The notes below the pieces were generated by a model that ran no database searches, was not told the origin of the DNA, and saw only the letters and a program-made list of their open reading frames with translations. The translations under genes were made by a program, and so were the position numbers. A stretch of 64,000 bases of DNA from Myripristis murdjan (Eukaryota), in NCBI RefSeq assembly GCF_902150065.1, contig NC_043996.1, forward strand, positions 24,860,745 through 24,924,744. Direction: 5' to 3'. This document shows, one piece after another, positions 7,236 through 8,900 of the stretch; the first letter of the stretch is position 1, and each line of letters opens with the position of its first letter.

Positions 7236-7707
7236 CTGTAAAAGAAATGAAAATTCAACACATCAACTTCATATTTCTAAACAATTTTGGAGGCCTTCCA
7301 TCATCAGTGAAGATACACTGTCAAATTTTAAAATCTTCCTAACTTGTTTTGTGACTAATGATTTATTTTTACTTTCCTTTTTCAGAAATAGCATCATTGC
7401 AATAAGTAAAGCAGAAAAACAACAGTAATGTCAAAGAATAAATATGAAACAAAGACATAAAAAAAAAATCATTATTCTGACAAATAGGAGGTTACAGAAG
7501 GAAGACACATTTTTGTTGTTGTGATAGTAATGGAGAGCCAACAGAGTGTTTGTTAATTTGCTACTACAACACTGAAGTATGTTTCAAGCAATAACAAATA
7601 GTCATGAGTTTTTGTTCATATTTTACAAAATGACTCCACTTCTGTTACACACACAGGAAAAAATGTACAATTGCAAGCACAATAAGTTCAGATGAGTCAG
7701 TACACAC

Positions 7708-7779
7708 CTGAGCAGACGTCCCCTCCTTGGCAGGCTTAGTGGTCTTCTTCAGGATTCCTTTAAACATGCCTCCTTTATC
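7708..7779 (-). CDS. Micro-exon repeat gene, basic A-type module (DKGGMFKGILKKTTKPAKEGTSAQ)
   Basis: Acceptor atttcag| and donor |gtgtgt. 72 nt. Nearly identical to exon 8301..8372. Confidence 0.6.
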
Positions 7780-7971
7780 CTGAAATATTAAATATGTCCA
7801 TCAGTATGCCAGTCTGAATTACAAATTGTCACTGATTTATGACACAAAGATATTTATCCAGGTCATGTTTATCAGAGATATAATCAGAAATACGTAATAA
7901 ATAAAAGTGGCAAAAAAAAAAAAGAAAGAAAAAAAAAGAAGTGAGAAATCCAGCACGTGTATTAACCTCAC

Positions 7972-8040
7972 CTTAGTGTTGTTGTTATCAGTCAAACTGT
8001 CATTGCTCTTTGAAAGCTCACTGTTCACTGACAGACTGTC
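7972..8040 (-). CDS. Micro-exon repeat gene, acidic B-type module (DSLSVNSELSKSNDSLTDNNNTK)
   Basis: Anchored to ORF 7837..8079(-). Acceptor ttcacag| and donor |gtgagg. 69 nt. Nearly identical to exon 8489..8557. Confidence 0.6.
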
Positions 8041-8300
8041 CTGTGAACCAAAATAAATAAAATTAAATAATAAATACAATTTAAAAATCAGAATAAGGAC
8101 TATGTGGATTAAGTTGATGGAGATTCAAATCATGGTCAAATCAATTACGGTGATGCTTCAAATTCAGCTCCAAAACGTTTTAAATCTTTCTTCAGTTTTG
8201 TTCCCATTTTGCAAAATGACCTCTACACTTTTGTTATATACACACACAAGAAAAAATGTACGACTGCAAACACAATAAGTTCCGACCAACCAATACACAC

Positions 8301-8372
8301 CTGAGCAGATGTCCCCTCCTTGGCAGGCTTGGTGGTCTTGTTTAGGATTCCTTTAAACATGCCTCCTTTATC
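8301..8372 (-). CDS. Micro-exon repeat gene, basic A-type module (DKGGMFKGILNKTTKPAKEGTSAQ)
   Basis: Acceptor atttcag| and donor |gtgtgt. 72 nt. Confidence 0.6.
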
Positions 8373-8488
8373 CTGAAATGTTGATCAAGATGCCAAACTG
8401 AATTACAAATTGCCATTGATTTACAACATAAATATAAGTATAAAAAGAAAAAACGGGATAAATCCAGCTACTGTGTCATAAACCTCAC

Positions 8489-8557
8489 CTTAGTGTTGTT
8501 GTTATCCGTCAAACTGTCATTGCTCTTTGAAAGCTCACTGTTCACTGGCAAACTGTC
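8489..8557 (-). CDS. Micro-exon repeat gene, acidic B-type module (DSLPVNSELSKSNDSLTDNNNTK)
   Basis: Acceptor ttcacag| and donor |gtgagg. 69 nt. Confidence 0.6.
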
Positions 8558-8900
8558 CTGTGAACCAAAATAAATAGAATAAATAAAATAAAATAAAAAT
8601 AAACACTAAATGGTGAACCAAATAGTATAAATCCATCATGATGCTTCAAATTTAATTCCAAAGCATTTGAAATCTATTTTTTATTTTATTTTATTTTTTT
8701 AAATTGTATTTACCATAATTTCATTGTTCTAAAATGGCAAACACCTTAGATAATATTGGTATTCAAGTCAAAATCAATATTTAGTAATCAACAGTGAGTT
8801 TTATCTTCATGACAACTTTTTTTAATCATTGTAGTTGTAAGGTTTTTTTTTTCAATATTTTTTTTAAGTAAAACTTGACAATTCACTACCACCACCTCAC

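Follow-up and report, generated by a model that had tools for sequence, protein, structure and literature searches.

The locus, at 4.8-9.9 kb of the teleost DNA that we analyzed (64,000 nucleotides; hereafter, the window), holds a gene on the minus strand that is built largely of small repeated exons. Immediately upstream of this repeat gene, and also on the minus strand, is TEP1 (telomerase protein component 1, with TROVE, NACHT, and WD40 exons), which occupies 12730-36575 and has its stop codon at 12730, the protein ending in ...LGKLYFLSWKE. A neighboring gene on the plus strand shows a long first-exon-like ORF at 52388-52921 that begins MGTRASRLQEDP..., carries Gly at position 2 (a myristoylation-type start), and is rich in Ser, Asp, and Glu. 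We modeled the repeat gene by mapping homologous proteins onto the window and checking splice sites, and the extent of the array is additionally based on positional orthology with the homologous proteins P0001-P0003. Its features, in the direction of transcription, are as follows.

9893-9895, minus strand: start ATG, which ends the 5' exon (AATG/gtgagt)
9657-9710, minus strand: exon 2, encoding ERYDKMDLDLECEGGGVA and matching the N-termini of homologs (MERYDNLDLDLECDGGG)
4873..8969, minus strand: whole array of alternating phase-0 mini-exons
8901-8969, minus strand: array exon A0
8489..8557, minus strand: exon B1 (69 nt, phase 0-0), encoding DSLPVNSELSKSNDSLTDNNNTK
8301..8372, minus strand: exon A1 (72 nt, phase 0-0), encoding DKGGMFKGILNKTTKPAKEGTSAQ
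7972..8040, minus strand: exon B1', duplicate (69 nt, phase 0-0), encoding DSLSVNSELSKSNDSLTDNNNTK
7708..7779, minus strand: exon A1', duplicate (72 nt, phase 0-0), encoding DKGGMFKGILKKTTKPAKEGTSAQ
7161-7235 and 6981-7052, minus strand: array exons B2 and A2
6785-6853 and 6248-6319, minus strand: array exons B3 and A3
6074-6142 and 5920-5988, minus strand: array exons B4 and A4
5028-5093 and 4873-4923, minus strand: array exon B5 and a short A-like exon
4694-4768, 4238-4285, 3922-3981, and 3578-3649, minus strand: tail exons
3759-3812, minus strand: tail exon encoding ...MTKLNPFRSGNK
2763-2816, minus strand: tail exon encoding ...MSKLNPFRSAHK
~2076-2138, ~1590-1652, and ~879-954, minus strand: tail exons
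1765-1851 and 1048-1134, minus strand: tail exons encoding ETPxVPxRPT(D/E)E
176-265, minus strand: last tail exon in the window, ending in a GTAAGT donor

The array thus reads A0, B1, A1, B1', A1', B2, A2, B3, A3, B4, A4, B5, and the short A-like exon. Since the exon at 176-265 ends in a splice donor, the gene extends beyond the window start.

The two exon types differ in character. A exons (GGxFxGxFKKxPKP...Q) have a net charge of +2 to +4 and a hydrophobic core, and B exons (DxLSxxSELSxSxDSLxDNxNTK) have a net charge of -2 to -4 and 6-8 Ser/Thr residues. A Pfam search with the 516-residue model, which joins all of the window's exons but the last two of the tail, revealed no domain, ApoL included; sub-threshold matches were weak, among them p47_phox_C on the PPRP motif and the two ETPxVPxRPT(D/E)E exons. 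The array region of the protein is predicted to be intrinsically disordered, and the AlphaFold2 model of the homolog P0001, which was built on a shallow alignment and has a mean pLDDT of 45 with one short helix, is consistent with disorder. NPF motifs are conserved in the tail (KLNPFRS twice and KNPFHS; exons 3759-3812, 2763-2816, and 4873-4923), and NPF is the classical ligand of EH domains (PMC6912373). The two ETPxVPxRPT(D/E)E exons look like SH3 ligands, and we infer from the NPF and PPRP-type proline motifs together that the protein resembles a scaffold made up of short linear motifs. Among the matches listed, homologs of the array protein occur in teleosts only, ranging over eels, bonefish, salmonids, gadiforms, Polymixia, Lampris, and percomorphs. 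Searching the literature for an account of this family yielded nothing relevant, and we regard it as an uncharacterized, teleost-wide family that lacks a Pfam domain.

Two neighboring B/A exon pairs of the array are closely similar. The original prediction had placed these four exons and quoted their peptides, and both the intervals and the peptides proved exact on minus-strand translation. B1 and B1' share 66 of 69 nucleotides (95.7%), A1 and A1' share 68 of 72 (94.4%), and the proteins differ by one residue per exon, so the near-identity asserted for the pairs holds at 94-96%. All four exons have intact splice sites: each acceptor is a CAG with a pyrimidine tract, and each donor reads GTGAG or GTGTG. 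Because each exon of the array is in phase 0-0 and has a length divisible by three, the extra pair splices in frame, adding 47 residues (a 23-codon B and a 24-codon A).

The similarity is not confined to the exons. Self-alignment had been proposed as a check, and a blastn self-comparison of 4000-11000 returned two strong direct matches, with intron identity above background: 7610-7852 matches 8196-8436 (82.4%, E 1.6e-54), 7929-8088 matches 8442-8600 (88.4%, E 4.5e-50), and homology extends more weakly through 8151-8187 with 8639-8675. From these self-matches, a global alignment, and a boundary analysis, we delimited two copies of a unit, with boundaries accurate to about +/-10 nt.

8197..8683, minus strand: upstream (5') copy, ~487 nt
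8188..8198, minus strand: junction between the copies, where the unit end (...GAACAAAACT) meets the unit start (AGATTTAAAACG...) in A-rich sequence
7611..8196, minus strand: downstream (3') copy, ~586 nt

The units abut directly, head-to-tail, and are collinear across both exons and three intron pieces, each running in the order intron part, B-type exon, intron, A-type exon, intron part. A tandem duplication of about 600 bp, comprising a part-intron, exon, intron, exon, and part-intron inside a gene of repeated exons, was therefore called correctly, the units measuring ~586 and ~487 nt. This difference in length is mainly due to a 68-nt A-rich insertion or deletion; the stretch, at approximately 7858-7925, belongs to the internal intron of the downstream copy and has no counterpart in the upstream copy. 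Inspection of the breakpoints found no long repeat or mobile element. A shared transposable element was also considered as the source of the intron similarity and was rejected, given that the similarity follows the two exons in an unchanged order and that the 7 kb searched (4000-11000) contain no further copy.

Global alignment of unrelated introns is an uninformative control here, because cheap gaps inflate identity, and we replaced it with intron-only BLAST and a shuffle test. Once the exons had been trimmed away along with 10 nt of flanking sequence at either end, the three intron pieces still matched their counterparts, with E values of 5e-12 (58 nt, 79% identity), 1e-19 (90 nt, 81%), and 2e-10 (131 nt, 66%). 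A BLAST comparison of the unit introns with all other introns of the array gave poly-A matches only (E >= 0.004). In the shuffle test, the internal intron showed 96 matches, as compared to 79 +/- 3.3 for shuffled sequence. By this measure, the exon-pair duplication is the youngest in the array, no other unit pair retaining intron homology. Tandem Repeats Finder, run on 1-16000, reported no array at the locus, which reflects both its longest period of 500 (below the length of one unit) and the divergence of the copies. An Rfam search of the whole window at gathering thresholds gave no match.

The degree of intron divergence bears directly on the age of the event. The flanking introns had been described as nearly identical, but they are 66-81% identical by piece, with indels of up to 68 nt, and the second of the two intron strings quoted in support (cctcaccttagtgttgttgttatc...cactg) is actually a B exon with its donor, written as the reverse complement. 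Counting the ungapped columns of the global alignment, intron identity amounts to ~78%, and the gaps measure 68, 13, 9, and 8 nt. Exons and introns clearly differ in this respect (134/141 vs 271/347 identical positions; Fisher p = 1.2e-6), the intron divergence being p ~0.22, or a Jukes-Cantor K of ~0.26. Five of the exon differences between the copies are synonymous and two are non-synonymous, giving a dS of 0.196, a dN of 0.018, and a dN/dS of 0.09. The longest exact match between the copies is 40 nt. Identity falls just outside the splice signals, and divergence is roughly even along the unit. Since dS is close to the intron K and identity drops outside the splice signals, the similarity of the exons is attributable to purifying selection rather than to recency or to gene conversion limited to exons. 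In keeping with their dN/dS of 0.09 and intact splice sites, both copies look like selected coding exons.

These values do not support the description of the duplication as very recent, given the intron K of ~0.26, the several indels, and the dS of ~0.20. Vertebrate neutral rates are ~1-5e-9 per site per year. At these assumed rates, a K of 0.2-0.26 corresponds to ~20-130 million years, and we infer an age of ~10^7-10^8 years, i.e., tens of millions, an estimate that depends on the rate assumed and on low counts (7 differences in exons, ~350 sites in introns).

A duplication young enough to be still polymorphic, behaving as a coding VNTR liable to collapse or expansion in assemblies, would account for the 94-96% identity of the exon pairs and for array copy numbers that vary between species. 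We nevertheless consider it very unlikely: the introns are only 66-81% identical, with indels of up to 68 nt, dS is 0.20, just two copies exist, Tandem Repeats Finder detects no array, and no exact match exceeds 40 nt. Efficient homologous recombination and assembler collapse both need exact matches far longer than 40 nt. The idea of a VNTR-like, assembly-prone locus is accordingly unsupported, and collapse is unlikely. The converse possibility, that a false tandem duplication or a retained haplotype produced the second copy during assembly, had been named in the original prediction as what would overturn it, and no specific observation favors it. Such artefacts would be near-identical, yet the copies differ by ~5% in exons and ~22% in introns and by several indels, and their substitutions are strongly biased toward synonymous sites (dN/dS 0.09). 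A divergence of 15-22% between the copies combined with a signature of purifying selection, where an artefact predicts near-100% identity, leads us to reject this explanation as having a negligible chance of being correct.

We compared the window with its counterpart loci in Tautogolabrus adspersus (L001), Stigmatopora nigra (L002), Symphorus nematophorus (L003), and Lampris incognitus (L004), as well as with protein P0001. Each of these five teleosts has one B1 and one A1, and both window copies match the same single exon in every one of them. Over the concatenated B1 and A1, the two window copies lie at a nucleotide distance of 0.05 from each other, and every ortholog is 0.21-0.34 away from them. 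Given the single-copy orthologs and the smaller distance between the copies, the duplication arose in the window's own lineage. Very roughly, these distances would make it one fifth as deep as the split from Lampris or Symphorus, the bracket being set by distant outgroups. Protein searches with the non-repeat tail and with the TEP1 C-terminus yielded distant fishes only, at no more than 65% and 59% identity, respectively.

The same comparison can be read differently, namely as an ancient duplication that predates the split from these fishes, was homogenized by gene conversion, and lost its second pair elsewhere. Repeat arrays can evolve in concert, and the distance of the compared species (0.21-0.34) leaves ample time for losses. 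However, this scenario needs losses in all five compared taxa, Lampris too, and the pattern along the unit (synonymous divergence similar to that of introns, evenly spread, with a drop outside the splice signals) is that of selection rather than of conversion tracts. We judge it improbable and retain a lineage-specific duplication as the preferred reading.

Other exon pairs of the array have been duplicated in other fishes. In Symphorus, a different A/B pair is duplicated with its introns (L003 7824-8087 vs 9080-9331, 90%); in Tautogolabrus, another one is likewise duplicated, introns included (L001 16616-16865 vs 16962-17219, 76%); and Stigmatopora shows a B2/A2 duplication. P0001 and Symphorus each have three pairs of the A3/B4 type, and Tautogolabrus has at least three, as compared to one in the window. 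These duplications are independent of the window event. Since different pairs are duplicated in different fishes, the array evolves by recurrent birth of exon pairs. Judged from the same loci, it is VNTR-like solely on a macro-evolutionary scale, with turnover visible between species only. Separately, the Stigmatopora ortholog contains a 731-bp repeat (L002 12238-12968 vs 18118-18848) whose copies are 100% identical and 5.9 kb apart; a transposable element, a very recent duplication, and an assembly artefact are all conceivable explanations.

Collectively, adjacent head-to-tail copies, a preserved frame, intact splice sites, and single-copy outgroups mark a tandem exon duplication. Our favored interpretation, to which we assign a probability of about 0.85, is a lineage-specific tandem duplication of a ~0.5-kb exon pair that is ~10^7-10^8 years old and of which both copies have been kept by purifying selection. 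In the sequence of events that we propose, a ~0.5-kb segment containing a B exon, acidic and rich in serine, and an A exon, basic and hydrophobic, was duplicated head-to-tail inside a pre-existing mini-exon array, with both breakpoints intronic, after the window lineage separated from the five compared teleosts. The extra pair splices in frame, lengthening the predicted disordered region by 47 residues, and purifying selection has since retained both copies as coding exons. The segment may have originated by unequal crossing-over or by replication slippage or microhomology-mediated repair in A-rich intron sequence, mechanisms that are hard to separate because ~22% divergence has blurred the breakpoints. 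The same process has repeatedly duplicated further pairs of the array in other fishes.

Both exon pairs are probably included in the mRNA constitutively, to which their dN/dS of 0.09 lends indirect support. Tandem exon duplication is a conserved process behind the gain of mutually exclusive exons, for which the criteria are neighboring homologous exons that are alike in length and share a reading frame (PMC5740500). The exons here agree with this description, being equal in length and phase with intact splice sites, and a real duplication whose copies are used alternatively, as a cassette or as mutually exclusive exons, rather than both being included would be compatible with them. Nonetheless, a difference of one residue per exon would gain almost no protein diversity. 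Moreover, in many of the validated mutually exclusive clusters, frame incompatibility enforces the choice (PMC5740500), whereas joint inclusion here preserves the frame, so that exclusivity is not enforced in this way. P0001, which is encoded by a 1.7-kb contig that is probably a transcript assembly, also includes all of its successive similar pairs. Alternative use is therefore an outside chance in our estimation, and we return to a duplication in which both pairs are included.

Tandem exon duplication in animal genes is reportedly a general route by which repeat proteins grow, as Kondrashov & Koonin 2001 and Letunic et al. 2002 are said to have described. It also has a stated role in bilaterians (PMC5740500). 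The event at this locus shares with that class its adjacent exons of equal length and phase, its intronic breakpoints, its in-frame effect, and its lineage-specific gain. It differs from the usual form in that the unit consists of two different exon types rather than one exon and in that what it enlarges is a disordered array of motifs, not a folded domain or a cluster of alternatively spliced exons.

Small symmetric exon arrays that expand by block duplication are familiar from the titin PEVK region and from nebulin super-repeats. The present array resembles them in its phase-symmetric exons of 70-85 nt, its modules of ~25 residues in an unstructured region, its alternation of basic and acidic modules, the duplication of several exons as a block, and a copy number that varies among lineages. 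Unlike them, the gene is small (~13 array exons) and teleost-specific, it has no sequence relationship to either protein, and its motifs are GGxFxGxFKKxPKP and DxLSxxSELSxSxDSLxDNxNTK. Coding minisatellites or VNTRs such as those of mucins offer another comparison, since they too have a tandem coding unit with a repeat number that varies between taxa. VNTR units lie within one exon and are numerous and near-identical, properties that drive ongoing slippage and recombination. By contrast, the locus has two intron-containing units of 66-96% identity, and not several near-identical units that could misalign, the longest shared run being 40 nt.

The array gene can further be compared with ApoL-domain genes of teleosts (PF05461) whose N-terminal regions are rich in repeats. 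P0014, a paralog from Coryphaenoides, has GGxFxGxFKK and SASNDSL repeats, the same types as in the window gene, annotated as fused to an ApoL domain; unlike P0014, the window encodes no ApoL domain, in that the Pfam scan of the window model did not find PF05461 and the gene continues beyond the window. In all four orthologous loci (L001-L004), the array gene has a same-strand gene with an ApoL domain downstream of it, and Stigmatopora keeps the same order of TEP1, repeat gene, and ApoL. The window gene is linked to ApoL solely through this synteny in other fishes and through the fused paralog P0014. When gene starts and exon positions are compared, the annotated ApoL proteins of Tautogolabrus, Symphorus, and Lampris appear to start at an internal Met, located in a 51-nt, phase-0 exon encoding 'TKVKKPKKHNPFMPR.K'. 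This Met-containing exon was found at the following positions.

L001 (Tautogolabrus), 25027: 51-nt exon with Met
L003 (Symphorus), 18627, 19317, 21075, and 21479: 51-nt exon with Met
L004 (Lampris), 19982 and 22580: 51-nt exon with Met

The exon is tandemly repeated, up to four times (Symphorus), and has its own acceptor as well as a conserved open frame upstream of the Met, from which it follows that the ApoL models of those fishes are probably 5'-truncated and that the repeat gene and the ApoL gene may form a single transcription unit. It is possible, though doubtful, that the repeat gene is the 5' half of a teleost ApoL-family gene, with a long disordered N-terminus made from phase-0 mini-exons of several kinds, namely basic-hydrophobic/acidic pairs, KLNPF exons, and 'TKVKKPKKHNPFMPR.K' exons. 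Contrary to such a fusion, four named NCBI models (P0003, P0005, P0006, and P0013) end before the ApoL part; these look like RefSeq-type predictions. On the downstream side of its ApoL gene, at L002 30555-30774, Stigmatopora has another B/A exon pair (ENLSAQKDLSASNDSLSE... / EKGSAFSGIFKKSSKP...). The position of this pair suggests tandem paralogous units, each of a repeat array and an ApoL gene.

Our data show an ordinary, well-preserved case of tandem exon-block duplication in a repeat-encoding gene, one that has little significance beyond annotation. Gene predictors easily truncate or split this locus, and likewise the neighboring ApoL models of other fishes. It also provides a clean, datable example of a disordered motif array growing by a two-exon block with both copies under selection. 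If the ApoL fusion is true, the disordered N-terminus would precede a membrane-active ApoL domain, and lineage-specific gains of exon pairs, like the one described here, would tune how an innate-immunity effector is targeted to membranes or to the endocytic pathway. The host family, if it is part of ApoL proteins, could then be of modest interest for fish innate immunity.
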